Source: an uncultured virus (IMG/VR IMGVR_UViG_3300001041_000010) (Duplodnaviria > Heunggongvirae > Uroviricota > Caudoviricetes). Taken from it: a DNA stretch of 64,000 nucleotides. Shown here one piece after another: positions 933 through 55,272 of the stretch. The DNA is taken from IMG/VR virus record IMGVR_UViG_3300001041_000010; one strand, written 5' to 3'. The notes beneath the pieces were generated by a model that was not told the DNA's origin, made no database searches, and saw nothing but the letters and a program-made list of their open reading frames with translations. The translations under genes were made by a program, and so were the position numbers. Positions within the stretch are counted from its first letter, which is position 1. The number at the start of each line of letters is the position of its first letter.

Positions 933-3900
933 ATGAGTTCAACTATGTATGAAACCGCCATGACAACGAACGGGAATTCTTCGAGTGGTAATAACGTGCC
1001 ATTCGGAATCATTCAACCCGTTACGGTAACATGGACTCGCACAAATCAATATAAAATCTATGGATTAAGAATCATGCGTCAGAATAGCGGAACCGGCGAG
1101 ACAACGGTAGCAAGCTATGGATTAGTTACCGGTACAGCATCAAGTCATACGTTTCCATATATCTCTTCAATGAGTCTTGAAGCCTATAAGGGCTATACGT
1201 ATTACTGGCAAGTTCGAGTTGGAGAGAGTATGAGTAGTTTTGGAGATTGGAGCGTACCAGTTTATTTTACAGTTCCCACGGCTCCACCTAAGCCCGATCT
1301 ACTTAATTACAATGGACTGACTAGTGCAACGCCTGAAATAGGCTACACTCAAGGTCTCACATTTTCTTGGAACTATAATGAATACGACGGTTATGAACAG
1401 GCGGCCTTTAGACTCTTAGTTGCCGGACAATGGACTCCATGGATTCTTAGTTCAAATACTAGCTATACACATAGTGGTGTTGGTATATCGACGAATACTG
1501 TTCATTCATGGCAGGTTATGGTGCGGGATACTATTGGTCTAGAAAGTCTAATCTCTAAACAAGGTTATTTTAAGGTCATTACGTCTGTCATCAGTAATCC
1601 TACAAGCTATAATGGAACATCATTAATTCCAGACCCCTGTGATACATTGACTCCAACGTTAACTTGGGACTGTATTGATCCGTCAGATACCGGTAAGACA
1701 CAAGGCTTTTTCAAGGTTGAGATGTTCTCTGGTAGCTATGGAAGTATAATTTATACTCAGACCTCTGGCTGGATTAATAGTTCTATCAATAGCTATATGA
1801 TTGATGAGACGTTCCCTATTAAACTACTTGGAGGCGTTAAATACACTTGGCGTATTACATTGAAGACTCCAGGCGGCAGTCAAGGTCCTACGAGCCCATG
1901 GGTTAGCTTTAAAACGAGCGATGCCTTAGTTAATCATCCGCCGAGTGCCACGTTAGTAAATTACAATGGATCTTCTCCTTCTAGTCCTGTACTTGCTCAA
2001 GATACAACGCCGATTCTAACCTGGGATTATACTGATCCAGATAATGATCCACAAGGTTCTTATTCTGTCCGTGTCTACAATGCTTCAGGCGTATTAATTT
2101 CCTCACAGGGATGGACAGGAAGTTCTAATGATTACTTTAAGGTTCCTGATTCTCTATTAAATACAGGGACTATATATCATTGGAATGTCCAAGTTAAAGA
2201 TAGTCGTGGCCTTACGAGTCAAGTATCTCCTATGGGATATTTTAAAACACCGGGCGTTCCTGTTACCTTTGTTGTAACGCCGAATAACTTAAATGGATCT
2301 GTCGGTAGTCCTGCAGCCTGTAATACCTTATTGGCTCCAATATTCAAATGGACTTTTACTGGAGCAACATCTCAAACAGCCTTTAGAGTAATAATCTATA
2401 ATGATCAGGGAGCTGTAGTTAGAGATACTAAGTTAATAAGTTCTTCAGCGGCGACCTATACGGCTACGAATTTAAAACTTGATCCACTAACAGTCTATTC
2501 CTGGACAGTACAGCTTAAGGATCCAAAATCAAATATGAGCTTAACAAGTTTCCCAGTTTACTTTAAGACCATTGATCGACCCCATACTAAACCAACTGTA
2601 AGTCCTACGAGCTTCTTGGGAACCTTAGCATCACCTAAGGATTGCACGACGTTAAATCCTACGTTTACTTGGACTTACAAAGATACTGACAATGATCCAC
2701 AGTCTGGTTTTAAGGTCTTAATTTATAAGGTTGGTAATACAACGCCTGTTAGTGCGTCGACTGATGCTATAGATTATGAACCAAGTACTCTTAAATACTA
2801 CACACCTAAGGCCTCTTCTTTAGAGTACAACACATTGTACTACTGGACGGTTCAAGTTAAAGATAATCAAGATGATGAGAGTCTCGTAAGTTCTCAAAAC
2901 TATTTCAAGACTCTACCTTCAATCGTTAACCATGTGCCGGTAATTATCTTGTCAAATTATAATGGTGATGAGTCTGAAGTATCAAGTTGTGACAATACGA
3001 TTCCCAGCTTAGCTTGGGAATATGAAGATCCCGACAATGATGTACAGTACAACTATAAAGTAGATATCTTCAGTAGTAGTAATACCCTTGTTCATACGAG
3101 CGGCACAGTTACTAGTTCGGCTCTTCGTTATGTTGTTCCTTTCGGTAAACTAGCACCAAGCACTACGTATCATTGGACTGTAACAGTAAGTGATAAGCGC
3201 GGCGCTAAAGGCTCACCGGTTCGCAGTGGCTATTTCAAAACCGGAACACCTCCTCCTAACGCAGCTCCTGTCGTTGTTCCTACGAGTTACAAAGGAACGA
3301 AGCTTGAGCCGGCAACTAGTACAACCCTGAAGCCGGTCTTAACTTGGGAATATACTGACGCAGACAATGATGTACAGGGTGCTTATCATGTTCAAGTCTT
3401 TACAGCTTCAGGGACACGAATTAAAGATTCTGGATGGATTACTAGTTCTGCTAAAACCTATACGGTGCCCAATGGAATTGTTGCTGGAACCGTCTATTAC
3501 TGGATCCTTCAAGTTAAGGATAAAAACAGTAGTGGAGAAGTCAGTATCATGACAGATCCTTGTTATTTTAAGTATAGTAATGAAGCTGCTAATACTCCTC
3601 CTGTCGTAACGCCAACAAGCTATACTGGTACCTCGGCAGCTCCTTCTGTGTCTAGTACTCTATTACCAACCTTGACATGGAGTTATAGCGATAAGGAAAA
3701 GAATCCACAGAAAACCTATACGGTTGTTATTAGGAATTCAGATGGTGTTGAGGTAATCAATACGGGAGCTATCACAAGTCAGAATCGTTACTATTCTGTT
3801 CCAAGTGCTAGTCGTCTACTTGAAGGTACGAATTATAACTGGAAAGTATCTGTAACGGATTCCACCGGGGCGGCGGCTGATGGTAGAGTATGTTATTTCA

Positions 3901-6900
3901 AAACCACGGGTACTAGTACAGTAGCTTCTCCTGATAAACCTGGACTAACTAGTTGTTATGGTACACTTTCTAATCCTACAGAAACAACTACGAAACCCAC
4001 GTTAACATGGACATATCATCATTCAAAGAATGTTCCACAAGGCTCTTACAAGCTGACGGTTTGCGCTGCTACGACAAATGCTACGGTCATTGATATTCCG
4101 TGGACATCCGGTGCCGCAACATCATATGATGTTACCTCTACAGTATTGAGTGAAGATGTAATGTACTACTGGAAGATTCAAGTCAAAGATACAAGTGGGC
4201 GTATGAGTCCTATAAGTTCTAATGGATATTTTAAGCCTACCTCAACTGAGATAAACAACCCTCCGACTGTTGTACTTTCAAGTTTCTGCGGAGAAACCAA
4301 AGAAGATCCTGATGCCTGTACGACTTTAACACCTGTACTATCCTGGGCCTATACGGATGCCGATAACGATATACAAAAATCCTTTAACGTAGGCATCATT
4401 GATGTTGAGACAGATGCCGTAGTGTATGATACTGGCATTGCGAATAGCCTATCTAAGAATACGGTCGTACCGGCAAACAAACTCACCAGTGGAAGAGTAT
4501 ACTCCTGGTATGTTACGGTATTTGATTCTAAGGGTAATAGCGGAGTAAGTTCAAAAGGATACTTTAAACCTATTTTTAATAGAGTACCTGTTGTCGTTAC
4601 GGCAAATTACAATGGACCTATTAACGCTCCTGTTATTTCTCCATCATATACTCCACTCTTCATTTGGAAGTACTCTGATCTTGATCGAGATATTCAAGTG
4701 TCGTACGTCGTTGATGTCTATAGTACGGCTGGAGTCTTGGTTTCGACGAGTGGCGCAATAGAGGATGAGCGGTATTATCATCTATTGACAACACCCTTGG
4801 CTGGAAATACAAGTTACTACTGGAAAGTTACCGTAACGGATTCTCAAGGAGGAGAAAGTGTTACGACTGCTCCTAGCTACTTTAAGACAACCGGTACTAA
4901 CAATAGTTTCCCAGTGGCTATTCCTAATAACTACAATGGCGATGTCACAAGTCCTAAGGAATGTCTCACCTTAACTCCTGCATTGACCTGGGATTATATC
5001 GATGCCGGTAAGAATCCACAAACATCGTATCTGGCTCAGATCTATGATTCTACCGGAACCATTGTATATAGTTCAAATTGGAAAACCAGTTCAGAGCAAT
5101 TCTGTATCACGAACGTTCCATTAACTGTAGGTACGCTTTACTATTGGGATATCTCAGTTAAGAATAGCAACAACATTCAGAGCCCTGTAGGTATCAAGGC
5201 TTACTTTAAACCAGTAGCTAGTACAAACAAAGCTCCTGATAAGCCAATCTTAACAAGCTATAATGGAACCGTGTCAACAGCCGTAATTTGCAACACATTG
5301 ATTCCTAAATTAAACTGGAGCTATTATGATCAAAACAATGATCCCGAGGGAGACTCCTTAGTTACGGTTTATGATTCAATCACGGGAGACTTAGTTTACT
5401 CTTCGAACTGGGTAAGTGGCGGTATCAAGGAGATCACGGTGCCCTCTGGAAAGATCCCTAATGCTAACAATACCTATAAATGGTGCGTTATCGTTAAGGA
5501 TAATAAAGGCCTAATAAGCCCTATGAGTAATTACGGTTACTTCTTCACAAGGGCAGCAACCAATACCTTACCTATTGTTACTCCGGCTAGTTATGCTGGC
5601 ACATTTGCTTCACCCTATTCTGCATCAACTCTAACACCGTCGTTGACCTGGACTTACTATCAAGCACAAAATAGTGATCAAGCGATGTTTAACATCATCG
5701 TATCAGACAATAGTAACACCATAGTCTGGGATTCGAATTGGGTTGTTGGTAGCGATGTAATGATTCAAGTGCCAGAGTCTAAGTTACTCGTGTCAGTCGT
5801 CTATCACTGGGTGATTCAGGTTAAAGATACGAACGGTAATCTAAGCAAAGTATCTGACCCGGTCTATTTCAAAACGGTTCTTGGTACGTCTCCCGTGGCA
5901 AGCCCAACTAATTTCAATGGAATTATCACAAACCCTGCTGCTTGCGATACCACATCTCCAAATTTGACATGGTCTTATTATCAAGCTCAGTCGAATCTAC
6001 AGGCGTCCTACTGCGTTTCCGTATACAATAGCAGTTTAGGGGTCGAGTATACTTCCGGCTGGACTGACGGCACTGCAACAACCGTTGTCGCTGGACCACT
6101 GGATTCGAATGAAACCTATCATTGGACCATCCAAGTCAAGGATACCACGGGTAACATGAGCGTTATTGATAAGCATGGTTATTTCAAGACACCCGAGAAC
6201 ACCAATAATCCTATCGTAACTTTAGAAAGCGATAATGGATCATTAGCTACTCCGTTTATTGATCAAAAATCCATTCCTAATTTCATGTTCCGTTATGTTC
6301 ATCCCTTAGCAAAGGATGCTAAGAAAAGCGTAATAACAATTTATGACGCTAGTAATACGGTTGTCTTCACTCGGACCGATACGGATACAATATATAGTCC
6401 ATGTGGAATCAGCTCCGGAATTGCCTTTACGCTAACTAAAGACGTCGTCTATCATTGGACAGTTGAAGTAACGGATGTAGACGATAACGTTGGAACCAGT
6501 AAGGCGGGCTACTTTAAACTAGCTCAAGGCAATCCAATTAGGGTTGCTGCTAAGTCTTACAATGGAACACAAGCTGCTCCTGCAGGATGTACGGGTTGTG
6601 TTTTATTTCCACCTGCTCTAACCTGGAGTTATATTGATCCCGTTAATAAGCCACAAGCTGCTTATAACGTCACGCTTTATAACGATCTTGGTGTTGTTAT
6701 CTATAATTCTGATTGGGTAACAAGCGCTTCTAAGTCTCGTACTATACCAAGTGGTAAACTAGTAGCCGGAACTACCTATCATTGGACGGTTCAAGTTAAG
6801 AACACTCTAGGTACGCTAAGTCCAAATAGTGATTTTGCTTACTTCCGAACAGAAGGTGGCACGGTTGTCTCGAATGCTTCGGTAACACTCATGACTTGTA

Positions 6901-7322
6901 ATGGAACTCTAACTACCCCAATTGTTACTATTCCAGACGATACGGACGTTACTATTGGCTGGAAGTATAATTGCAATACAGCCGTCAATGTCGCTAGTAC
7001 GACTTTAATAATCTATGATCCTAGTGACACGGTTGTTTGGACTAAAGATGTTGTGGCCTCAATGATTCCCGGTGATAGCGCAGTAGAACCTGCTGCAGTA
7101 TCTTTCTTTACTGAAGATGTTGTCTATCATCTTACGGCCGAAGTAACGGACGTCAATGGTAAGAAGACTATCTCTACTCCGGGTTATTTTACGGTTGAAC
7201 CCGCTGTTGTTGTTGAACCGACGATCACCTTATTAAGTCCTCTCGGAACCTTGTCTAGTCCATTATCAGTTGCCAATCCTGTAGATCATGTAGTTCATTT
7301 CACCTATCGTTATAATGATTAA
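933..7322 (+). CDS. Giant (2129 aa) Ig/FN3-like repeat virion protein (fibre/adhesin): 19 repeats of about 110 aa plus a truncated 20th
   Basis: Repeat YNG..P..C.TL.P.L.W.Y.D...Q..Y.V.IY...SGW..S...Y.W.VQVKD..G..S....YFK, resembling GH78 N-terminal Ig/FN3 modules; RBS aggagg. Confidence 0.8.
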   Translation: MSSTMYETAMTTNGNSSSGNNVPFGIIQPVTVTWTRTNQYKIYGLRIMRQNSGTGETTVASYGLVTGTASSHTFPYISSMSLEAYKGYTYYWQVRVGESMSSFGDWSVPVYFTVPTAPPKPDLLNYNGLTSATPEIGYTQGLTFSWNYNEYDGYEQAAFRLLVAGQWTPWILSSNTSYTHSGVGISTNTVHSWQVMVRDTIGLESLISKQGYFKVITSVISNPTSYNGTSLIPDPCDTLTPTLTWDCIDPSDTGKTQGFFKVEMFSGSYGSIIYTQTSGWINSSINSYMIDETFPIKLLGGVKYTWRITLKTPGGSQGPTSPWVSFKTSDALVNHPPSATLVNYNGSSPSSPVLAQDTTPILTWDYTDPDNDPQGSYSVRVYNASGVLISSQGWTGSSNDYFKVPDSLLNTGTIYHWNVQVKDSRGLTSQVSPMGYFKTPGVPVTFVVTPNNLNGSVGSPAACNTLLAPIFKWTFTGATSQTAFRVIIYNDQGAVVRDTKLISSSAATYTATNLKLDPLTVYSWTVQLKDPKSNMSLTSFPVYFKTIDRPHTKPTVSPTSFLGTLASPKDCTTLNPTFTWTYKDTDNDPQSGFKVLIYKVGNTTPVSASTDAIDYEPSTLKYYTPKASSLEYNTLYYWTVQVKDNQDDESLVSSQNYFKTLPSIVNHVPVIILSNYNGDESEVSSCDNTIPSLAWEYEDPDNDVQYNYKVDIFSSSNTLVHTSGTVTSSALRYVVPFGKLAPSTTYHWTVTVSDKRGAKGSPVRSGYFKTGTPPPNAAPVVVPTSYKGTKLEPATSTTLKPVLTWEYTDADNDVQGAYHVQVFTASGTRIKDSGWITSSAKTYTVPNGIVAGTVYYWILQVKDKNSSGEVSIMTDPCYFKYSNEAANTPPVVTPTSYTGTSAAPSVSSTLLPTLTWSYSDKEKNPQKTYTVVIRNSDGVEVINTGAITSQNRYYSVPSASRLLEGTNYNWKVSVTDSTGAAADGRVCYFKTTGTSTVASPDKPGLTSCYGTLSNPTETTTKPTLTWTYHHSKNVPQGSYKLTVCAATTNATVIDIPWTSGAATSYDVTSTVLSEDVMYYWKIQVKDTSGRMSPISSNGYFKPTSTEINNPPTVVLSSFCGETKEDPDACTTLTPVLSWAYTDADNDIQKSFNVGIIDVETDAVVYDTGIANSLSKNTVVPANKLTSGRVYSWYVTVFDSKGNSGVSSKGYFKPIFNRVPVVVTANYNGPINAPVISPSYTPLFIWKYSDLDRDIQVSYVVDVYSTAGVLVSTSGAIEDERYYHLLTTPLAGNTSYYWKVTVTDSQGGESVTTAPSYFKTTGTNNSFPVAIPNNYNGDVTSPKECLTLTPALTWDYIDAGKNPQTSYLAQIYDSTGTIVYSSNWKTSSEQFCITNVPLTVGTLYYWDISVKNSNNIQSPVGIKAYFKPVASTNKAPDKPILTSYNGTVSTAVICNTLIPKLNWSYYDQNNDPEGDSLVTVYDSITGDLVYSSNWVSGGIKEITVPSGKIPNANNTYKWCVIVKDNKGLISPMSNYGYFFTRAATNTLPIVTPASYAGTFASPYSASTLTPSLTWTYYQAQNSDQAMFNIIVSDNSNTIVWDSNWVVGSDVMIQVPESKLLVSVVYHWVIQVKDTNGNLSKVSDPVYFKTVLGTSPVASPTNFNGIITNPAACDTTSPNLTWSYYQAQSNLQASYCVSVYNSSLGVEYTSGWTDGTATTVVAGPLDSNETYHWTIQVKDTTGNMSVIDKHGYFKTPENTNNPIVTLESDNGSLATPFIDQKSIPNFMFRYVHPLAKDAKKSVITIYDASNTVVFTRTDTDTIYSPCGISSGIAFTLTKDVVYHWTVEVTDVDDNVGTSKAGYFKLAQGNPIRVAAKSYNGTQAAPAGCTGCVLFPPALTWSYIDPVNKPQAAYNVTLYNDLGVVIYNSDWVTSASKSRTIPSGKLVAGTTYHWTVQVKNTLGTLSPNSDFAYFRTEGGTVVSNASVTLMTCNGTLTTPIVTIPDDTDVTIGWKYNCNTAVNVASTTLIIYDPSDTVVWTKDVVASMIPGDSAVEPAAVSFFTEDVVYHLTAEVTDVNGKKTISTPGYFTVEPAVVVEPTITLLSPLGTLSSPLSVANPVDHVVHFTYRYND

Positions 7323-7913: not shown

Positions 7914-9119
7914 ATGGCAACAACGATAAGTACCGGGATCAGTATCTTTAAAGTTTCGGACGATAGTGAAGTTTACACTACGATTCCTCTCGTAAATACT
8001 AATCGAGACTTTGACATTACTGTTTCGACTGATCAATTAATCGTAAGTACGGATTATTACTGGACAGCTTCTGTAACGGACACTGTAACTGGAGCTACGA
8101 CTATCTCAGATAAGAGTTATTTTAAGATTGCTCCTATCCCAGGAATCGTTCACTTAACAAACTTTATCGGCACCCAAGAATCGCCCGTCGTTAGTACGAC
8201 ATTAACTCCAACATTAACTTGGAGTTGTAATTACTCACCGATTGATTTAGAGGTTCAGATACGCTTTATAGACGGTGCCGATACCTTCGTCGTCTTCTAC
8301 AATTCACTTGATAAGGACTTAAGATCACTATCAATTGATACGGCTATACCAACAAATATAACGAATGAGACTTCAGGAACACATACAATACCCACGGGTC
8401 CTTTAGTTTTAAAGAATGGTCTGGACTATCGATGGATGGTATGGGGCCATTTCGATCCATCCGTTGCAAGCGTTGAGACGGGATACATCCATATCACCTT
8501 GCCAAATCTTAATCCAAATGTTAGTCTATTAACATTTAACGGAACACAAGGTACTCCGAACGAGTGTAAATATATTAGACCAGTACTATCTTGGCATTAT
8601 ACTGATCCGGAAAACAATCCACAATCCAGCTATATTGTTAATGTCTATGACTCAGATGGCGTTAATGTCTTCCAGACAAACTGGATTAATAGTAGTGCTA
8701 CAAGTGTAACTCTACCAGCCACCACGTTAAATGCTGATAGCCTTTACTATTGGAACGTTCAAGTTATGGACAGTTATAACAATACGAGTGACATTAGTTC
8801 GGATGGTTACTTTATGACCGGTTTACCTCCCACATTGACAAGCTGTAATGGCCTTACGAGCGACGATCCTAATATCGTCAATACGATCCATCCGGTATGG
8901 AGCTGGAGTTATGATGAAGTGTGTTCAGTATTCGATGTAGTCTTTAATGATCCAACAGGCGCTACCGGTAAAATTGAGCAACCGAATATCGATAACACGT
9001 ATACATGCAATGAAGACGGAATAGTATTTGGCACAGTTTATTACTGGTGGGTCTATCTTACTAACGATAGCGGCATGACAAGTTTTCCAAGTGTAAGAGG
9101 TTACTGGAAAGCAGTCTAA
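7914..9119 (+). CDS. Ig/FN3-repeat protein: C-terminal half-repeat plus 3 full repeats
   Basis: Starts mid-repeat (TGISIFKVS...YYWTASVTD...SYFK); RBS aggagg. Confidence 0.8.
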   Translation: MATTISTGISIFKVSDDSEVYTTIPLVNTNRDFDITVSTDQLIVSTDYYWTASVTDTVTGATTISDKSYFKIAPIPGIVHLTNFIGTQESPVVSTTLTPTLTWSCNYSPIDLEVQIRFIDGADTFVVFYNSLDKDLRSLSIDTAIPTNITNETSGTHTIPTGPLVLKNGLDYRWMVWGHFDPSVASVETGYIHITLPNLNPNVSLLTFNGTQGTPNECKYIRPVLSWHYTDPENNPQSSYIVNVYDSDGVNVFQTNWINSSATSVTLPATTLNADSLYYWNVQVMDSYNNTSDISSDGYFMTGLPPTLTSCNGLTSDDPNIVNTIHPVWSWSYDEVCSVFDVVFNDPTGATGKIEQPNIDNTYTCNEDGIVFGTVYYWWVYLTNDSGMTSFPSVRGYWKAV

Positions 9120-30589: not shown

Positions 30590-31152
30590 TGTTAGTTATC
30601 TTTCAGGGCCCGTCGTGTGCTGGCAAAACAACGTTGACTAAAGCCTGTGGTCTTCCGATTCTTATAACGTATACAACGCGTGAGAAGCGCGTTGATGAGA
30701 CCAATGGTGTTGACTATCATTTTATATCACTCGAAGAATTTAAAGCCTTAGACGCCGAACAGGGCTGGGCTACGTATGAAATTATTCAAGGTGACTACTA
30801 TGGAATGACAAAAGTTCAACTTGAATTGCTGAACTCTAGTAATGTCGATTGTTGTATTGCTTTAAACCGTAAAGGATCGGATGCTTATACGCGGCACGTT
30901 GATAATGTCATTATCATTGGGGTCAAATGTAATGAAGAAGAGATTAAGCGTCGTCTTAAAGAACGCTATGGTTCAGATGAGTTTAACTATTACAAACATT
31001 TCAGAACCTATAATAAAGACGTGGCTAATCTCACCAATTGTGATTTACTGATTAACAATGATCTAGAGTTAGGTGTGGTTGTTGATTTTGTTAAGGCTTT
31101 TATAGCTGAAGCACTACAGGCCGGTGGCCTTCTAATGCCAGACTTTACCTGA
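30589..31152 (+). CDS. gmk: Guanylate kinase-like protein
   Basis: GPSCAGKTT, TYTTR..R.DE.NGVDYHF, GDYYG; TAATG-coupled start at 30589. Confidence 0.8.
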   Translation: MLVIFQGPSCAGKTTLTKACGLPILITYTTREKRVDETNGVDYHFISLEEFKALDAEQGWATYEIIQGDYYGMTKVQLELLNSSNVDCCIALNRKGSDAYTRHVDNVIIIGVKCNEEEIKRRLKERYGSDEFNYYKHFRTYNKDVANLTNCDLLINNDLELGVVVDFVKAFIAEALQAGGLLMPDFT

Positions 31153-31180
31153 TTATTATCGTCGTCTTCGAGCAATAATA
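31151..31180 (+). promoter_or_regulatory. Candidate forespore (sigF/sigG-type) promoter for the SASP gene
   Basis: GATTA-N15-AGCAATAATA versus sigF consensus GYWTA-N15-GGnrAnAnTw. Confidence 0.4.
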
Positions 31181-31208
31181 CTATCATAAATAAAAGGAGG
31201 CGATACAC

Positions 31209-31358
31209 ATGGCGAAGTATAATATGCCCGTTAATAAAGAGGAAACAGCTCGTGAATTAGGAATTCAACTTGGTGCAGATCGCACAAGTCGTGAGAACGG
31301 ATCGGTTGGCGGAAGAATGGTTCGAAAGATCTTTGAACAATTTGGGCCTAGTCGATAA
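31209..31358 (+). CDS. Alpha/beta-type small acid-soluble spore protein (49 aa, not in ORF track)
   Basis: MAKYNMPVNKEETARELGIQLGADRTSRENGSVGGRMVRKIFEQFGPSR matches the SASP signature; RBS aaaggagg. Confidence 0.88.
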   Translation: MAKYNMPVNKEETARELGIQLGADRTSRENGSVGGRMVRKIFEQFGPSR

Positions 31359-31367
31359 ATAACACAG

Positions 31368-31416
31368 ACAAATAGCTCACTAGAAGGGAAATACTTCTAG
31401 TGAGCTATTTGTTTTC
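31368..31416 (+). terminator. Terminator at the +/- convergence
   Basis: acaaatagctcactagaag-N7-cttctagtgagctatttgt followed by T-run. Confidence 0.8.
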
Positions 31417-31547
31417 TGTAATAGATAAGGATTCTTAGAATCTAAATACTTCTTAAGCTGCTCCCAATTTGCTTTATAGATTCTATGAATAAAGGCCTTA
31501 GGATACAATACATTACCTTCTCTATGGTTGATTAGAGATTTATGCAC
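31380..31547 (-). CDS. Small 55-aa hypothetical protein (not in ORF track)
   Basis: RBS aaggag, GTG start, MHKSLINHREGNVLYPKAFIHRIYKANWEQLKKYLDSKNP... Confidence 0.4.
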   Translation of the reverse strand: MHKSLINHREGNVLYPKAFIHRIYKANWEQLKKYLDSKNPYLLQKTNSSLEVFPF

Positions 31548-31665
31548 TGATTGTCAGCTCCTTAATTATAGTACGGTGGTTGGTTCGTTTACTGGTACGT
31601 CGCATCATACGCTAGAATGTATGAAAGACGAGTAGTTTTACTAGGGAGAGTAGGGTCGCACGTTT

Positions 31666-31860
31666 TTAAGAAGGGTGACCAGAGGGAAACCCTGGCGATT
31701 TCGGCTTCGAAACTTTGGACGAACCGGCATTAAGCTTCCGGTAAATATCCACTGAGATAAAACTTACGAGAACCTCTGCAGGAAGATTCCCTGTGAGTTC
31801 ATATTCCTTTATAGCATCTGTTAAGATCTTCTGAACCGCTACAATATCCACGATAATCAC
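31666..31860 (-). CDS. Small hypothetical protein
   Basis: Preceded by aaggag and a sigE-type promoter. Confidence 0.5.
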   Translation of the reverse strand: MIIVDIVAVQKILTDAIKEYELTGNLPAEVLVSFISVDIYRKLNAGSSKVSKPKSPGFPSGHPS

Positions 31861-31884
31861 TCCTTATATCAATCTCTATTACAA

Positions 31885-31913
31885 ATTGTATGAACAATTA
31901 TCCAAAATCATTC
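31885..31913 (-). promoter_or_regulatory. sigE-type promoter
   Basis: GAATGAT-N14-CATACAAT; -10 equals consensus CATACAHT. Confidence 0.6.
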
Positions 31914-31922
31914 CAGTAAGCT

Positions 31923-31960
31923 CATAAACTTTAATAAGGATTTTCTTATTAAAGTTTATG
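31923..31960. terminator. 16-bp hairpin/terminator
   Basis: cataaactttaataag-N6-cttattaaagtttatg. Confidence 0.65.
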
Positions 31961-31981
31961 GCCTATTTCTTTAATAAGACA

Positions 31982-32245
31982 TCAGTTTGCAAGACCATGG
32001 ATCACATAGAGAACGAATAAAACCGCCAGAACTTTACTCACTGTCTCCCATGTAGTGTTAATCTTCGAGCTAAAGTGTTTTAGATTAGGCCTTGTTAAAA
32101 CCCTGCGCTGAACGGCTGGCGGTGTCTGATTCAACACGATAATAATAGGCTGCTTTTCTTTAAGTAGATCCGGAAACAGATCGAGTACTGATTTAACGTC
32201 TGGCTCCTGATTGGGTCTTAGTTTAATAACGTGTGCTTTTGCCAT
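31982..32245 (-). CDS. Small protein with C-terminal TM helix
   Basis: RBS aggagg; VLAVLFVLYVIHGL. Confidence 0.6.
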   Translation of the reverse strand: MAKAHVIKLRPNQEPDVKSVLDLFPDLLKEKQPIIIVLNQTPPAVQRRVLTRPNLKHFSSKINTTWETVSKVLAVLFVLYVIHGLAN

Positions 32246-32257
32246 AATTAATTCCTC

Positions 32258-32332
32258 CTAATGAATTAATTTGTAAATCAATAAACCAATAAACGGTGTT
32301 GCTATAACAAGAATTCCTAGTAATTTTCTCAC
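32258..32332 (-). CDS. 24-aa single-TM peptide (not in ORF track)
   Basis: GTG start after aggtggtgagg; MRKLLGILVIATPFIGLLIYKLIH; stop overlaps next RBS. Confidence 0.5.
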   Translation of the reverse strand: MRKLLGILVIATPFIGLLIYKLIH

Positions 32333-32353
32333 CGCCTCACCACCTTATGATAG

Positions 32354-32434
32354 TAGTATGTCCATGTACCAAAATGTTATACATAAATATATTACAAAAT
32401 ATAATGCATAAATGTAATAGAATTGGTGATACTA
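32354..32434. promoter_or_regulatory. Divergent pair of sigF/sigG-type promoters
   Basis: Minus: GTATA-N14-GGACATACTA (32382-32354); plus: GCATA-N14-GGTGATACTA (32406-32434). Confidence 0.55.
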
Positions 32435-32473
32435 GTATTAAGGTAATGACATAGAATTAAGGGAGGAACTTAT

Positions 32474-32788
32474 ATGATTAAAGCATGGTTTAAAGAGGGT
32501 AGTCGAATGTTAGAAGAATTCAATTACATTAGACAGCAGGCCATCATCGGATTTGCTATCACGAAAGACAAGTGGCTCTACATTGAGTACACGGATTCTG
32601 ATCACCAGTTCACTGCAAGACTGGTAAAGCCTATTAAGTTCTTGCAGTCGAACCAAAAGGGTCATGGATTCTTAGCAAAATGTGAGCTACGAGATTCAAA
32701 CTACAGACACTTTAAACTCCATGGAATTCATAAGATGGTCGTGGTCGACAACATCCTTACCTGGAATGAGAATATGTATCTAGACTAA
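32474..32788 (+). CDS. Stand-alone WYL-domain protein
   Basis: AI.....L.IEY.D.....T.R.V.P.......G.LA.C.LR...R.F.L..I. Confidence 0.75.
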   Translation: MIKAWFKEGSRMLEEFNYIRQQAIIGFAITKDKWLYIEYTDSDHQFTARLVKPIKFLQSNQKGHGFLAKCELRDSNYRHFKLHGIHKMVVVDNILTWNENMYLD

Positions 32789-32790
32789 AG

Positions 32791-32821
32791 AAAGTAGCTA
32801 GGGATTATCCCTAGCTACTTT
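32791..32821. terminator. Bidirectional terminator (15-1-15 palindrome)
   Basis: aaagtagctagggat-t-atccctagctacttt between convergent genes. Confidence 0.8.
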
Positions 32822-33401
32822 ACAAATACCCCATAGGATCAACAGCCAGACCGTTACGTCTTAATTCAAAATGTAAATGAGGCCCAGTGGAATGCCCCGT
32901 AGTTCCACAACTACCAATAGTCTGGCCAGCGACTACGGGATATCCTACTTTAATATCGATACCGGATAAATGACCGTAGATTGATTGCATTCCCTGGTCA
33001 TGGTCGATCACAATCATATTGCCGTAGATATCATCCCATCCTACTTTCGATACGTCACCTTCTCGTGTGGCTTTGACTTTAGTTCCAGCGGGAGCCGCAA
33101 AGTCAAGGCCATGATGATCCTTCCCAGCATACTCTTGTGTGATCTTACCTTTAATCGGTGAATTCCATTTGCCTTGACCGAAGTTTGCAACGCGATCTAA
33201 TGAGTTTTGTATTGAATTTGTCTTAGTTTGAGCGGCCTTAATATAAGGAGTTAGAGTTACGACTGTACTCTTAACAATAATTAGTATTGTTAGAATTATA
33301 ACTCCCTTAGAAAGATCATTAAAACCAAAAGCCTTAAGTATAACGTAAGCGCCGTACGTAAAAACCATCATGAATAAGACTAAACCAATCCACTGGGTCA
33401 T
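32820..33401 (-). CDS. M23/LytM peptidase with N-terminal two-helix membrane anchor (SpoIIIAC-like)
   Basis: Intact HHGLD, YGHL, TGPHLHFE; 2 TM helices at N-terminus. Confidence 0.85.
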   Translation of the reverse strand: MTQWIGLVLFMMVFTYGAYVILKAFGFNDLSKGVIILTILIIVKSTVVTLTPYIKAAQTKTNSIQNSLDRVANFGQGKWNSPIKGKITQEYAGKDHHGLDFAAPAGTKVKATREGDVSKVGWDDIYGNMIVIDHDQGMQSIYGHLSGIDIKVGYPVVAGQTIGSCGTTGHSTGPHLHFELRRNGLAVDPMGYL

Positions 33402-33641
33402 TTATTTATACCCAGCCGTTGCAAAGAAAGCATCGAGTAAAACCTTAGCAGCTCTTAAAACCACACCGACTCCTATGATTGTCACAAGGGTCTGAACAAA
33501 GAGTGCAGACTTACCACTCTCAGTAAAACCAGCAATCTGTTTACCAAGCCATCCTACAAAGGCAAGCATTACAATAACGATAATTGGAAATCCTTCACCA
33601 CCTGGCTTAAAGATGACGTAGGCTGCTTCTCCCATAGCCAC
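33402..33641 (-). CDS. Small two-TM protein, SpoIIIAC/AD-like
   Basis: Size, hairpin topology and I....G..A..V.....I pattern resemble SpoIIIAC (by eye). Confidence 0.45.
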   Translation of the reverse strand: MAMGEAAYVIFKPGGEGFPIIVIVMLAFVGWLGKQIAGFTESGKSALFVQTLVTIIGVGVVLRAAKVLLDAFFATAGYK

Positions 33642-34425
33642 ATTCCTCCTTAAGTTGATCGAGTGTCACCACAGTAAAGTCAAGACCTTCTGAATTATCA
33701 CGCTCTATGGCATCTCTAATCTTTCTGGGATTACCGGTCGTTACGATTAAGATTCTAGGAAACGACTTTGTTTTAGATACCCACCATGATTTCATATAGG
33801 CTTTAGAGAGTTTAAGATTACAATACTTTGGAACCTTCAAGAATTTATTACCGGACTCCTCGATATCAAATTCTATGAATGTAAAATCAATCGTCCTTTC
33901 CATGAGGTTCTCAATCCCAATGAGACCATCCGGTCTTAGTCTAACTTGTGATTCATACTCTTTAACCTCACGATCAAAGCTATAGAATTTCTCACAGCCA
34001 CTGAGCTTATGAATCATCCAAGTAACAATCCAGGTAACTCCTAAGATATGTTCTATTTGATCTAATTTCTTACTCGACGCATTGTAATAATAATAGGGTT
34101 CATTGATTGTATACCGGTCTCTCCTAAGCGGAGGATTTGGATGACGTTTCGTTGACTTACTTAGGATCTGCAATCGTCTTTGACACATCCTCATAGAACT
34201 TGATTTAAAATTCACTAAGTTAATTTGTTCAGTATTAGCGTATTTGACTTGATTAATAAACTTCATGATTTCACGATCCCTATTTACACATCGAATATGA
34301 TTATTTCTTTTTACGGACTGGGAGTTCTGCGGTGCGGGTTGATTTAAAACTGGTATAGAAGGGTATGTTTTGGACGATGGGCGGGCTAATGGCATCAAGC
34401 AACTCCTCCATTCTATCAGGATCAT
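33607..34425 (-). CDS. Replication-relaxation (Replic_Relax) family protein, wHTH plus PD-(D/E)XK
   Basis: RDREI..F......T.QI....F......QRRL..L; EH.L; LRPDG; FIEFD; FP.ILIVT; true start may lie downstream. Confidence 0.75.
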   Translation of the reverse strand: MILIEWRSCLMPLARPSSKTYPSIPVLNQPAPQNSQSVKRNNHIRCVNRDREIMKFINQVKYANTEQINLVNFKSSSMRMCQRRLQILSKSTKRHPNPPLRRDRYTINEPYYYYNASSKKLDQIEHILGVTWIVTWMIHKLSGCEKFYSFDREVKEYESQVRLRPDGLIGIENLMERTIDFTFIEFDIEESGNKFLKVPKYCNLKLSKAYMKSWWVSKTKSFPRILIVTTGNPRKIRDAIERDNSEGLDFTVVTLDQLKEECGYGRSSLRHL

Positions 34426-35497
34426 CAGTTGGCAGACACATGGTCTGAGTTTCTAGCTGATCATCATATTGAAATATTGCACGACCTGGCTTATTAGGAA
34501 TCTGACTTGCTAGTTCATTACCTAAAACGATCATAGAATTCATAGCATCTCGTACATGAAAACACATACTAGCTTGAAACTGAGCACGAGTCTCTGTGAA
34601 GTTAGCAAACGTTTGAGCCGAGGGACGCTGAGTAGAGAATACCAACAGGCAGCCAGCCGCACGGCCAAGGCGAGCAATACGATTTAATAAGATCTGAGCT
34701 TCTTCATTATCAGAGATTTCTGTTAGCTCATCGACAATGACTACAGTAAAGGGCATCGAATTTCCCTTTTTAATATAGTCTTGAATCCTAACACAACGGG
34801 CCTTAGAAAGTATAGCTAATTTACGATCCATCTCACGATTACACGATTGAAGTAAATTCGTGATGTCTTCTTTTTGCGTTACGATCAAAGCATGTTTCTC
34901 TAAATATTTAAACTCCATAAGTTTTAAATCAATGACGACTAAATTCACAAGACCCTTAGGATTCACCATGTTGTTGTGAATTAAATTCATAGCAATCGAA
35001 TGAATCCAGGTTGATTTGCCGGAACCCGGATGACCGGCACACAAGACATTGACCATTGAACTTAAGTCCTTAACAATTTCACCAATCGCTGTATACCCAC
35101 AGTGAATTGGTAGATACATCTTAGGATAAAGAGTTGGATCAAACTTATATGGATAGTAATCTTTAAGTCTCTCAGTTGAAACACACATTTTAATCACCTT
35201 ACCATGACGGCTAATCTGAACGGCACCATCCCCTACGGCATCTGAGAATAATGTTTCCATGGCTTTAAAATCTTTGTAAGCGTAGCCTGCTGGTAGTTTA
35301 ATTAAGAATTCCCAAGCAGTTTTAGTTAACTTAAACTTCTTAAAGATTCGCGGTATCGGTGTCTTGTTGTACTTAAATTTAATTACGTCTTCAATAATTA
35401 ATGCTATATCATGACCTCTCCAGAGTAAAACCAAACGACGTAGGGATTGACTTAATTCTTGACTTGTGCCGTTGTCAACGAATTGATTTTGTTGCAT
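34301..35497 (-). CDS. FtsK/SpoIIIE-family ATPase (no gamma domain)
   Basis: Walker A AGHPGSGKS, VIDLK..EF, VIVDE, RLGRAAG, STQRP, PGRAI; ATG at 35497 after aggaggtg. Confidence 0.9.
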   Translation of the reverse strand: MQQNQFVDNGTSQELSQSLRRLVLLWRGHDIALIIEDVIKFKYNKTPIPRIFKKFKLTKTAWEFLIKLPAGYAYKDFKAMETLFSDAVGDGAVQISRHGKVIKMCVSTERLKDYYPYKFDPTLYPKMYLPIHCGYTAIGEIVKDLSSMVNVLCAGHPGSGKSTWIHSIAMNLIHNNMVNPKGLVNLVVIDLKLMEFKYLEKHALIVTQKEDITNLLQSCNREMDRKLAILSKARCVRIQDYIKKGNSMPFTVVIVDELTEISDNEEAQILLNRIARLGRAAGCLLVFSTQRPSAQTFANFTETRAQFQASMCFHVRDAMNSMIVLGNELASQIPNKPGRAIFQYDDQLETQTMCLPTDDPDRMEELLDAISPPIVQNIPFYTSFKSTRTAELPVRKKK

Positions 35498-35509
35498 AAT
35501 TTCACCTCC

Positions 35510-35574
35510 TAGGACATAATATGCTGTCACATTGTGTCCTATGTTAGTGTATGAGCTCTTTCCGTAACAGATAA
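35510..35574 (-). promoter_or_regulatory. Tandem sigE-type promoters with TAGGACA inverted repeat
   Basis: ACATAGG-N14-CATATTAT (35544-35516) and TTATCTG-N14-CATACACT (35574-35546); TAGGACA-N18-TGTCCTA. Confidence 0.55.
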
Positions 35575-35600
35575 GTTGCCGAAGGCGCTACGCGTACATT

Positions 35601-35635
35601 AAAAAAGCCCCGATGACTTTAATCATCGGGGCTTT
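35601..35635 (-). terminator. Intrinsic terminator insulating the FtsK operon from upstream transcription
   Basis: aaagccccgatga-N6-tcatcggggcttt with T6 on the minus strand. Confidence 0.85.
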
Positions 35636-35649
35636 GGTCGATTGCCGAC

Positions 35650-35775
35650 CTACCGTTTGGAAACATTGAATTTCTCCTGGCAGTCCTTACAAACACATTT
35701 CTCCAGGAATCGTTGTTTGTCTACGACATCAACGTTCGTAGAATTACATTTGGGGCAGGTGATAGTTGGCGTCAT
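35650..35775 (-). CDS. 41-aa zinc-ribbon protein (not in ORF track)
   Basis: MTPTITCPKCNSTNV...CVCKDCQEKF; RBS aaggaggag. Confidence 0.65.
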   Translation of the reverse strand: MTPTITCPKCNSTNVDVVDKQRFLEKCVCKDCQEKFNVSKR

Positions 35776-35844
35776 AAAAACTCCTCCTTCATCGCACCGT
35801 GGACTCTAGGGTGTTCCCTAGTATGATCTTGGCTTTCGCCAGGA

Positions 35845-36237
35845 TTACCTGTTGTAAACATCTTTAATGATCGTGTTTAGAACACCGAGACTTGCTTCAA
35901 ACATTGGTAGATATTCTAATTTACGTTTCTCAAGTTCTTCACGGCCTTCCTTAGAAATACTATAGAAGCGACGAGTCTTCTTATCGGACTCTTGATTATC
36001 CCAAAATCCGTGAACCCATCCAGATTTTTCGAGATCTCTAAGGATTGGATAGACAAGACCATGAGAAGGTTTCCAATTTGATTCTAGCTTAGTGGTTATA
36101 TCATCAACGATCTGCTTACCATAAAGGTTCTCTCGACCGGATAACATCCACAAGATATAGACCATGAGAAACGATGTGGTACCCATCTTCATTGGAAATA
36201 ATCGATTATAACTTCCCTGGTAATCTAACTCTGCCAT
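35845..36237 (-). CDS. PadR-family transcriptional regulator
   Basis: LYG..I.......W.PS.G.VYP.L..LE..G.V...W.....RR.Y.I...G. Confidence 0.88.
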   Translation of the reverse strand: MAELDYQGSYNRLFPMKMGTTSFLMVYILWMLSGRENLYGKQIVDDITTKLESNWKPSHGLVYPILRDLEKSGWVHGFWDNQESDKKTRRFYSISKEGREELEKRKLEYLPMFEASLGVLNTIIKDVYNR

Positions 36238-36263
36238 TGTTGTAACCTCCTAATGTTAATTCT

Positions 36264-36318
36264 GACATAGTATATTACTAATATGTCTGGATTATACATT
36301 AGACTGTCCATAATAACA
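36264..36318 (-). promoter_or_regulatory. sigA-type promoter and GACATA-N12-TATGTC inverted repeat (candidate PadR operator)
   Basis: TTGTTA-N17-TATAAT; inverted repeat just downstream of -10. Confidence 0.5.
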
Positions 36319-36333
36319 AGACAAATTACGACA

Positions 36334-36564
36334 TCATTCGATTAATACATCGTTTACGCTTACCGTTTCTTCACATTCAGGGCAGAGGTATATAAGCGTG
36401 ATCGTCGTACTGCTTGGGATAGGAGTGAGTCCGATGGATCCATCATCGTTGAAGACAGCCTTACCTGAAACAGTAGACACAGGTCTGCCATCGAAGCTAA
36501 GCTCTTGAAAGTTAACGACGTTACCCTTATAGCCACAGTGAAAACATTGGGCCACATTAAACAC
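36334..36564 (-). CDS. Zinc-ribbon protein
   Basis: CFHC...CPEC. Confidence 0.55.
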   Translation of the reverse strand: MFNVAQCFHCGYKGNVVNFQELSFDGRPVSTVSGKAVFNDDGSIGLTPIPSSTTITLIYLCPECEETVSVNDVLIE

Positions 36565-54699: not shown

Positions 54700-55272
54700 T
54701 TATTCCTTATCGAAGACCGTTACAGTTAGTTTCTTGCGACCCCATCGAACACTATCATCGTAACTTCCCATAAACAAATCAATAATGTGACCATGAATTG
54801 CACCTCCGGTATCTTCTGCAATTCCATAACCATAGCCTGGAACATAAATCTTAGATCCTAAAGGTATTATCTTAGGATCTACAGCAATTGTTCCAACCTT
54901 AGGCCACACTCCGGTACATGTTCTACCGCCAGTCCAAGAATAGGCTACGGTATCTAATGTTATCTTATACTGACGTCCTTTGGGTTCACTGCGAGATGGT
55001 GTCGCTTGATGCTTTTTTAGCTCTGCGATGTCCGATCGCTGCTCAGCTATAATCTTTTCTTGCTTGGTCATTTCAGTCGTAACCAAATCTAATGTGTCCG
55101 TAGAATCCTTAAGACTCTTATTTAATGATTGGATCGTAGTTTGTTGTTCACTTATAAGTTTATTTGTATTTCCGACATAGTCATAGGCCGGAATAGCGAT
55201 GGACGCTAGGATCATAAATCCTCCCAGCGCCACTGCTATTGGTTTTCTGCTAGATCGTTTAATAATGTTCAC
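54700..55272 (-). CDS. Secreted/anchored 3D-domain cell-wall protein
   Basis: Signal/TM, coiled coil, T.AY, IAVDP.IIPLGS, AEDTGGAI.G..IDLF. Confidence 0.88.
   Translation of the reverse strand: MNIIKRSSRKPIAVALGGFMILASIAIPAYDYVGNTNKLISEQQTTIQSLNKSLKDSTDTLDLVTTEMTKQEKIIAEQRSDIAELKKHQATPSRSEPKGRQYKITLDTVAYSWTGGRTCTGVWPKVGTIAVDPKIIPLGSKIYVPGYGYGIAEDTGGAIHGHIIDLFMGSYDDSVRWGRKKLTVTVFDKE

Follow-up and report, generated by a model that had tools for sequence, protein, structure and literature searches.

A pair of adjacent genes, coding for an FtsK-like ATPase and for a protein of the Replic_Relax family, occurs with this gene order in Bacillus and Geobacillus, on phages as well as on plasmids (the Andromeda-like Bolokhovo and Curly, GBSV1, BtCS33 and pLW1071). 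The gene that comes next usually codes for a small membrane protein, and the annotated cassettes may include 'TrbC/VirB2' and RHH genes. In the passages that papers on Bacillus phages devote to these cassettes, their function is not assigned by test (PMC9658697; PMC11526630). We consider here a cassette of four minus-strand genes, which fill positions 32820-35530 of a 64,000-nucleotide stretch of DNA (the window) from an uncultured virus of the Caudoviricetes, and where the same two genes are followed by a two-helix membrane hairpin and by an M23 metallopeptidase. The IMG/VR record IMGVR_UViG_3300001041_000010, 117,365 bp long and rated 52% complete, begins with the window, which makes up its first 64 kb. 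An initial annotation, made from the letters of the window alone, saw in these genes a conjugation-like machine for the entry of phage DNA into spores, and noted, rightly as the Bacillus and Geobacillus examples show, that the FtsK and Replic_Relax pair is known in Firmicute phages.

Within this common plan the differences are considerable. The ATPase of the window is just 22-31% identical to those of the Bacillus and Geobacillus cassettes. The small protein is doubled, and one of the copies is fused to an M23 peptidase that has kept its catalytic motifs. Furthermore, the 'TrbC/VirB2' protein of Bolokhovo is unlike the hairpin family of the window (hhalign probability 0.1%).

Conjugative elements provide another term of comparison, namely the TcpA systems of pCW3, Tn916/ICEBs1 and the streptococcal integrative and mobilizable elements (IMEs). 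The motor of the window is nearest to a solved coupling protein (6o1w-6o1z), and its gene stands upstream of a nuclease gene, just as tcpA is placed upstream of the relaxase gene in the account given of streptococcal mobilizable elements (PMC5357655). Replic_Relax, as a Pfam family, goes in CONJscan under the label MOBC, according to the relevant passages of two articles (PMC5357655; PMC12857230), and thus brings to mind the MOBC relaxases TraX of pAD1 and MobC of CloDF13. The conjugation-like make-up that had been read in the cassette is borne out to this extent. In contrast to TcpA, the ATPase of the window has no N-terminal two-helix membrane domain, and the cassette sits in phages. VirB4-, VirB6- or VirB8-like genes are absent from its vicinity: no VirB4-like or other channel gene was recognized among the 173 open reading frames (ORFs) of the 117-kb record (E <= 1e-5), nor among the 149 ORFs of eight related loci.

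Finally, two parts of the sporulation apparatus have to be considered. The septal pumps SpoIIIE and FtsK belong to the same Pfam family as the P-loop motor of the window, which scores 109 bits against FtsK motor structures. Unlike them, it has neither a four-helix membrane anchor nor a long linker, is devoid of the polarity-reading gamma domain, and comprises 398 residues against 700-1100 for the cellular FtsK genes of the searched loci. SpoIIIAC and SpoIIIAD are small membrane proteins with the size and two-helix layout of the hairpin, and the similarity of their profiles with that of its family reaches 88% over some 55 columns. By contrast with SpoIIIAC, the hairpin belongs to a phage cassette, outside any spoIIIA operon, and the protein of the window has no Pfam match; several of its relatives display signal-peptide-like leaders that are absent from the five host SpoIIIAC sequences that we extracted. 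SpoIIQ, the partner of the SpoIIIA proteins, carries an M23/LytM domain. Among the nine articles found to mention SpoIIIAC together with phages, none has such a cassette as its subject, to judge by the titles, and neither word figures in their titles or abstracts.

The four genes and their products

The likely start codons, set from ribosome-binding sites and from alignment to relatives, are ATG at 35497, 34395, 33635 and 33401. With these starts the FtsK and Replic_Relax genes overlap by 95 nt, and the ATG of the M23 gene abuts the stop codon of the hairpin gene. An intrinsic terminator lies at each border on the minus strand. The first, at 35635-35604 (14-pair stem with 7 GC pairs, followed by a T run), ends an upstream unit coding for a zinc-ribbon and a PadR-family protein; the second, at 32821-32791 (14-pair stem with 6 GC pairs), is a perfect 15-nt inverted repeat. 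Terminator-like sites number 10 in the 6.5-kb region, for 3.9 expected.

The first gene (34301-35497, in an ORF extending from 34301 to 35530) has its start codon behind AGGAGG and specifies an FtsK/TcpA-like P-loop DNA translocase of 398 amino acids. It matches the Pfam family FtsK_SpoIIIE (PF01580) with 64.3 bits for a cutoff of 24, and phrog_1358 with an E-value of 8e-48. Its Walker A motif, G-x-x-G-x-GKS, and its D256/E257 pair fall in invariant or nearly invariant columns of an alignment of 33 ATPase sequences. No gamma domain was matched in Pfam at E <= 0.01, no hydrophobic stretch that would make a membrane segment was seen when reading the sequence, and the chain stops about 50 residues past the motor domain. 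The N-terminal 95 residues or so match no known family. When the family profile was compared with PDB sequences, the best match was 6o1w-6o1z, a 'DNA translocase coupling protein' (128 bits, E 3e-36), followed by the FtsK motor (109 bits) and by EssC/EccC. We infer that 6o1w-6o1z is the structure of TcpA from pCW3, because a review, in the part that concerns this protein, mentions a TcpA(102-530) structure described as FtsK-like (PMC12857230). The NCBIfam matches of the ATPase were all under their cutoffs, and PADLOC returned generic matches for the ATPase, with none for the three other proteins.

The second gene (33607-34395, in an ORF extending from 33607 to 34425) starts behind GGAGGAG. Its product is unmatched in Pfam, even at E <= 10, and it is through its relatives that it is assigned to Replic_Relax (PF13814): the eight homologues that were scanned, 41-47% identical, all match this family with 30.3-48.5 bits for a cutoff of 25.3. 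The protein itself matches phrog_9381 (E 1.4e-8), a family labelled 'replication initiation by nicking'. Its AlphaFold2 (AF2) model, with a predicted local distance difference test score (pLDDT) of 85.5, comprises a winged helix and a PD-(D/E)XK fold, and the top Foldseek matches of the model are EndoMS, MunI, FokI and other PD-(D/E)XK nucleases (E 7e-4 to 5e-3). This agrees with the placement of Replic_Relax in the PD-(D/E)XK superfamily, as made in an earlier publication (PMC3424549). In an alignment of 29 sequences, residues E153, D166, E185 and K197 are invariant and D187 nearly so. Direct searches were less productive, as tblastn gave two weak matches in Geobacillus phages and zero in plasmids, a word-index search gave two matches, and the profile of the protein found none among PDB sequences.

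The third gene (33402-33635, in an ORF extending from 33402 to 33641) codes for the hairpin, 77 residues long, for which AF2 predicts helices at 18-42 and 45-76 (pLDDT 74.8). Foldseek found no match for this model in the PDB. Only two relatives were retrieved among 1.84 billion representative sequences, and at least 15 positional homologues are present in the loci described below. Ten hairpins of the wider family begin with leaders that, read by eye, resemble signal peptides, from which the hairpin would be expected to have both ends (mature N-terminus and C-terminus) on the outer side of the membrane and its short G-K-G-Q loop on the inner side.

The fourth gene (32820-33401) codes for an M23 metallopeptidase of 193 residues. 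The domain matches PF01551 with 116.5 bits, and its HxxxD, H and HxH motifs are kept in 15 of 15 full-length relatives; a search with the protein also gave full-length homologues about 51% identical to it. It is preceded by an N-terminal two-helix anchor that resembles the hairpin, with an hhalign probability of 51-76% for a maximum of 1.2% with shuffled targets; the hairpin profile also detects an anchor-only paralogue in one locus (L012, E 6.5e-4). Against SpoIIIAC the anchor gives 14-44%. As the anchor is paralogous to a hairpin with both termini presumably outside, the M23 domain is likewise predicted outside the membrane, that is, where peptidoglycan is located. The NCBIfam model of SpoIIQ comes 11th among the M23 models that match the protein (63.3 bits for a cutoff of 250), behind models of general endopeptidases.

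Most of what the initial annotation had read in these four genes stands: their tight coupling, the two terminators at the borders, an FtsK/SpoIIIE motor deprived of gamma domain, a nuclease combining a winged helix with a PD-(D/E)XK fold, an intact M23 peptidase and an N-terminus that replicates the pattern of the hairpin.

Conservation of the cassette

An alignment of 33 ATPase homologues was used to gather relatives, which came from 80 loci of genomes and 79 of viruses (designated hereafter by L and a number). The viral loci are not independent of one another, because many come from one metagenome series. A profile search found a close ATPase in 48 loci, and the Replic_Relax gene is directly downstream in 47 of these. 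The hairpin and the full-length M23 protein follow in the order of the window in 16 loci, which represent 12 distinct sequences, and again in L189. The order, with overlapping ends, is therefore FtsK, Replic_Relax, hairpin, then anchor with or without M23: the peptidase is absent and the two-helix anchor kept in L008, L009, L102 and L012, and the M23 gene goes without a recognized hairpin in L114-L116. In many relatives the cassette forms its own unit. The relatives were reached through the ATPase alignment only: scanning viral contigs for patterns of Replic_Relax and of the hairpin yielded no confirmed relative, and a megablast of the region against isolated phages gave zero matches.

Used alone, the ATPase leads much further afield. 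It retrieved 353 phage records (249 from Bacillus, 52 from Mycobacterium, six each from Listeria and Staphylococcus) and 648 plasmids (288 from Bacillus, 80 from Sinorhizobium, 59 from Clostridium and 45 from Priestia). No annotated Replic_Relax gene adjoins the ATPase gene in the Mycobacterium phage NihilNomen or in the Bacillus phage BCP8-2. It is also absent beside the FtsK-like gene, a longer one, of the jumbo phages SP-15 (Bacillus, L002) and LIS04 (Listeria, L003). Directly upstream of this gene both phages have an 87-residue protein, which the hairpin and SpoIIIAC profiles miss; the annotation of SP-15 makes it a membrane protein with two helices.

A candidate route for phage DNA

The best explanation that we can offer is that the cassette is a self-contained unit for DNA handling and membrane transport, of conjugative ancestry, carried by phages and plasmids of endospore-forming Firmicutes. 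The winged helix of the Replic_Relax protein would bind a site on phage DNA, which the PD-(D/E)XK domain would nick or cut. The ATPase, without a membrane segment of its own, would form a ring and pump this DNA. The membrane part would be made of two SpoIIIAC-like hairpins, one free and one bearing the peptidase, and the M23 domain, outside the membrane, would locally open peptidoglycan cross-links. Being invariant or nearly so in their catalytic residues, nuclease and peptidase are counted here as active enzymes, which remains a prediction. The barrier to be crossed would most likely be the sporulation septum or the engulfing membrane, so that phage DNA would reach the forespore. That the cassette serves at all to carry DNA through a barrier, be it membrane or wall, seems to us somewhat probable. 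The complete scenario, with a membrane-anchored DNA pump assembled at the septum in the course of sporulation, is tentative, and we would sooner doubt it than take it as it stands.

Hairpins and the SpoIIIAC family

The link with sporulation depends to a large extent on the hairpin, which had been called SpoIIIAC-like. Taken across loci, the small proteins encoded after Replic_Relax make one broad family of 34 non-redundant sequences. Compared with SpoIIIAC, this wide family gives hhalign probabilities of 58-77%, or 81-88% when query and target are swapped, over some 55 columns. The control comparison of SpoIIIAC with SpoIIIAD gives 81-85%. Decoys remain far below: column-shuffled targets do not exceed 3.2%, and AtpE, FliQ and SecG from the same five genomes stay at 0.1-0.6% (the SecG set keeps a row, L216, which is apparently an ORF in the wrong frame). 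Ten Gram-positive type IV secretion system (T4SS) pilins (PF18895) reach 1-3% against the wide family and 5-11% against the close subfamily of the window. Left out of these comparisons were L121 (first hairpin set), L114-L116 (anchor set), and duplicates and pieces shorter than 55 residues (wide set). Some members of the wider family have matches to the Pfam SpoIIIAC model below its cutoff of 24 bits (L103, 16 bits; L108, 12.8; L183, 10.2), and one distant relative, L110, similarly matches TrbC (19.5 bits for a cutoff of 27.9). In the ESM Atlas, the second-ranking cluster for the hairpin has 14% SpoIIIAC members (score 0.85), and should be considered as a lead only.

Two cassettes possess a genuine SpoIIIAC. 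On plasmid pMU3262 of Thermoanaerobacterium, a SpoIIIAC-family protein (Pfam 49.8 bits, cutoff 24) is followed, in this order, by a 120-residue protein, FtsK, Replic_Relax and a Spo0E-like protein. In Natroniella sulfidigena, a 69-residue protein with 25.7 bits on SpoIIIAC (cutoff 24) comes directly before FtsK and Replic_Relax. Plasmid pMU3262 (L195, NC_017998, 111 kb, with its cassette at 85-90 kb) has genes for dUTPase, HNH, HU, ParM and a tyrosine recombinase close by, and looks like a plasmid-prophage that interferes with sporulation. The SpoIIIAC protein of pMU3262 was also used in a tblastn search of phages, which returned seven faecal contigs. All five that we examined pair SpoIIIAC with SpoIIIAD, and for this reason have the appearance of spoIIIA operons of the host, and not of cassettes.

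A remote relationship of the hairpin family with SpoIIIAC is therefore suggested by profile comparison, and not yet proven. Several observations, in this section and the next one, weigh against it or against a role in sporulation as such. At E <= 10, none of the 16 close hairpins (that of the window and 15 relatives) matches the SpoIIIAC model of Pfam (PF06686); none matches TrbC or T4SS_pilin either. With the same threshold, the hairpin profile never finds the spoIIIA loci of five host genomes, and retrieves only the cassette copies. The subfamily of the window, compared with the five host SpoIIIAC sequences, gives hhalign probabilities of only 7-11%. The score of the wide family drops to 6-35% when only members at E < 1e-12 are included, and to 9-47% once the four members with sub-threshold Pfam matches are removed, so that the whole span, according to the membership chosen, is 6-88%. 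What remains of the initial claim is the graded profile similarity of the wide family, together with the true SpoIIIAC of two cassettes.

Promoters and hosts

The initial annotation had also stated that only sigE-type promoter matches precede the operon; what was found is a single -10 match, and relatives lend it no support. From the upstream terminator to FtsK, the minus strand shows no sigma-70-like site, and CATACACT, at 35553-35546 (minus strand), 49 nt before the FtsK ATG, is the sole promoter-like element there. It fits what we take to be the sigE/sigK-type -10 consensus (CATACA-T), and it is a candidate only. Indeed, CATACANT is present eight times in the window for 10.9 expected, without enrichment, hence the motif alone means no more than chance. 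Among 41 non-redundant relatives, CATA[CT]ANT is found within 400 nt upstream in only four, for 2.5 expected, and none of the four matches is plausibly spaced, two being at -6 and -13 and one inside a gene. Many relatives, besides, carry a gene for an XRE-type regulator ahead of the cassette. Three of the four minus-strand octamers of the window are intergenic and located just upstream of minus-strand genes, a mildly suggestive distribution: those at 31623-31616, 31892-31885 (where it reads CATACAAT) and 35553-35546 precede, respectively, a 55-residue ORF, a 64-residue ORF (31666-31860) and the FtsK operon. The 117 kb contain 16 CATACANT octamers for a non-coding share of 8%, and the three intergenic octamers may, on this basis, belong to a shared promoter class.

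The 117 kb themselves (173 ORFs, E <= 1e-5) showed no recognizable gene of sporulation, sigma factors included. Host counts come from relatives of the window phage. The hosts of close loci are Desulfosporosinus (three), Pelosinus, Dethiobacter, Peptococcaceae (two), Syntrophomonadaceae and one unclassified Bacillota bin, to which an Archaeoglobus bin, suspected of mis-binning, has to be added. The spoIIIAC/AD genes are present in the five host genomes that were tested. In a sample of 301 genomes from the phylum of the Pelosinus host, Replic_Relax was found in 11, all among the 245 that possess spoIIIAC. A restriction of the module to spore formers, an expectation of the initial annotation, fits these counts; the association is not significant, because with a background of 81% the expected chance is 0.81^11 = 0.10, and it is confounded by descent. 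The 52 Mycobacterium phage records point in the same unfavourable direction as far as FtsK-like ATPases alone are concerned.

Genomic surroundings

Proteins of the window phage recur on contigs that reach 229,618 bp, which makes it probable that we are dealing with a jumbo phage of about 230 kb. The 117 kb encode a replisome (PolIII alpha, a DnaB-like helicase, two primases, SSB, RecA and ligase), together with genes of nucleotide metabolism. Upstream of the cassette, beyond the terminator, are a 41-residue zinc-ribbon ORF with a CxxC...CxxC pattern (35650-35775, minus strand) and a gene for a PadR-family regulator (35845-36237, minus strand), whose product is also above the Pfam cutoff for the replication terminator protein family RTP (30.5 bits for 26.7). 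The 64-residue ORF, located on the minus strand some 1 kb past the cassette, has a single homologue among the gathered loci, at 4945-5166 of L124, where it immediately precedes the FtsK gene (E 4.7e-16). This ORF may belong to the cassette as a loosely attached fifth gene. A repeat search of 31000-36400 showed no outstanding oriT-like repeat.

Further away on the plus strand, a 2129-residue protein (933-7322) carries 10 Rha78A-like Ig repeats (Pfam E 2e-128) and a 401-residue protein (7914-9119) carries one; both are probably surface or fibre proteins. On the minus strand, at 54700-55272, a 190-residue protein ends with a 3D domain (73.6 bits), a wall-acting domain, and is the sole wall-related protein besides M23 recognized in the 117 kb. 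The phage genome also comprises a MoxR-vWA pair, at 10258-13411 of L005 (minus strand, 74258-77411 of the record), where a MoxR-type AAA ATPase (bpMoxR, E 1.5e-46) adjoins a 600-residue protein with a vWA domain. In the prophage of L010, which has the full four-gene cassette, a reverse transcriptase and a bAvd-like gene, forming a diversity-generating retroelement (4680-6502), sit beside the lysis genes.

Other functions for the cassette

The most serious rival is that of a plasmid-type replication or segregation module. Replic_Relax would start replication, by nicking or by binding an origin, the ATPase would resolve or partition the copies, in the manner of episomal prophages, and the membrane proteins would act as mere tethers. 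Such is the role that the Bacillus phage papers, where they comment on the pair, ascribe to it, without tests (PMC9658697; PMC11526630). The label of phrog_9381 goes in the same direction, as do the proximity of ParM/StbA genes on pLW1071 and pMU3262 and the location in temperate relatives, where the cassette is part of an early region and follows cI/Cro-like and Phage_rep_O-like genes. However, a plasmid initiator would be redundant in the window phage, because it encodes its own replisome, and an O-like initiator is already at hand in relatives such as L088. The model also leaves without a role a predicted extracytoplasmic M23 domain that has conserved its catalytic motifs in all 15 relatives. 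We regard this function as unlikely.

Mobilization, or transfer from cell to cell, appears a little more doubtful again. With the ATPase as a TcpA-type coupling protein and Replic_Relax as a MOBC relaxase, the DNA of the phage or prophage would then ride a resident conjugative channel, or cross the vegetative septa of chained cells with the help of the hydrolase. Here the kinship of the ATPase with a conjugative coupling protein is an argument in favour, as are the MOBC class of Replic_Relax and the succession of coupling protein and relaxase genes, in the order reported for streptococcal IMEs; moreover, the conjugative systems of Gram-positives need a wall hydrolase, and PrgK is referred to in a review (PMC12857230). 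Against this, no channel gene accompanies the cassette in the 117 kb or beside it in the eight relatives, and the N-terminal membrane domain of TcpA is missing. The hairpins, moreover, resemble T4SS pilins very little, whether by hhalign or in Pfam, and a lytic jumbo phage would draw little benefit from conjugation.

A more daring version of the septal DNA pump, close to what the initial annotation had in mind, has to be mentioned at this point. The hairpins would be captured and diverged SpoIIIAC paralogues that enter the SpoIIIA-SpoIIQ (A-Q) channel of the host, in the engulfing membrane, and make of it, or of a copy of it, with the M23 protein, a conduit through which the FtsK-like pump would drive phage DNA, once processed by the nuclease, out of the mother cell and into the forespore. 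We hold this to be quite improbable.

As for the idea that the last two genes are a holin and a membrane-tethered endolysin, forming an accessory lysis pair placed after FtsK and Replic_Relax, it is very improbable in spite of its classic layout (a 77-residue two-helix protein, then a wall hydrolase), of endolysin-labelled families among the PHROG matches of the M23 domain and of a 117-kb record where no other lysin than the 3D-domain protein was recognized: among eight Pfam-annotated relatives, separate holin-amidase pairs are present in L088, L010 and L012 and a separate amidase in L102, the pair stays with FtsK and Replic_Relax across loci whose ATPases are some 35-48% identical to that of the window, the anchor persists free of peptidase in four loci, and about half of the phage genome, where lysis genes might be sited, lies outside the record. 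In view of the separate lysis genes of these relatives, the four-gene cassette is probably not the main lysis cassette. The probability that remains beyond the septal DNA pump and its three rivals we leave open.

Implications for the phages of spore formers

Phage genomes become trapped in spores and survive there. To our knowledge, no viral gene set that would serve this entrapment has been described for most phages. The FtsK-Replic_Relax cassette, common on phages as well as plasmids from Bacillus-like hosts, is known but unexplained. What is new here is the doubling of a SpoIIIAC-like hairpin, one copy of which is fused to an M23 wall peptidase predicted to be active, and the suggested link of the cassette to the SpoIIIAC family. 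This offers a concrete idea: a DNA pump, anchored in the membrane, would work at the sporulation septum. Should this idea be wrong, the cassette would still be an unusual conjugation-derived unit, devoid of channel, that calls for another explanation. If, on the other hand, the reading as a SpoIIIA-SpoIIQ conduit were true, we would be in the presence of a virus-encoded machine for the intracellular transfer of DNA.

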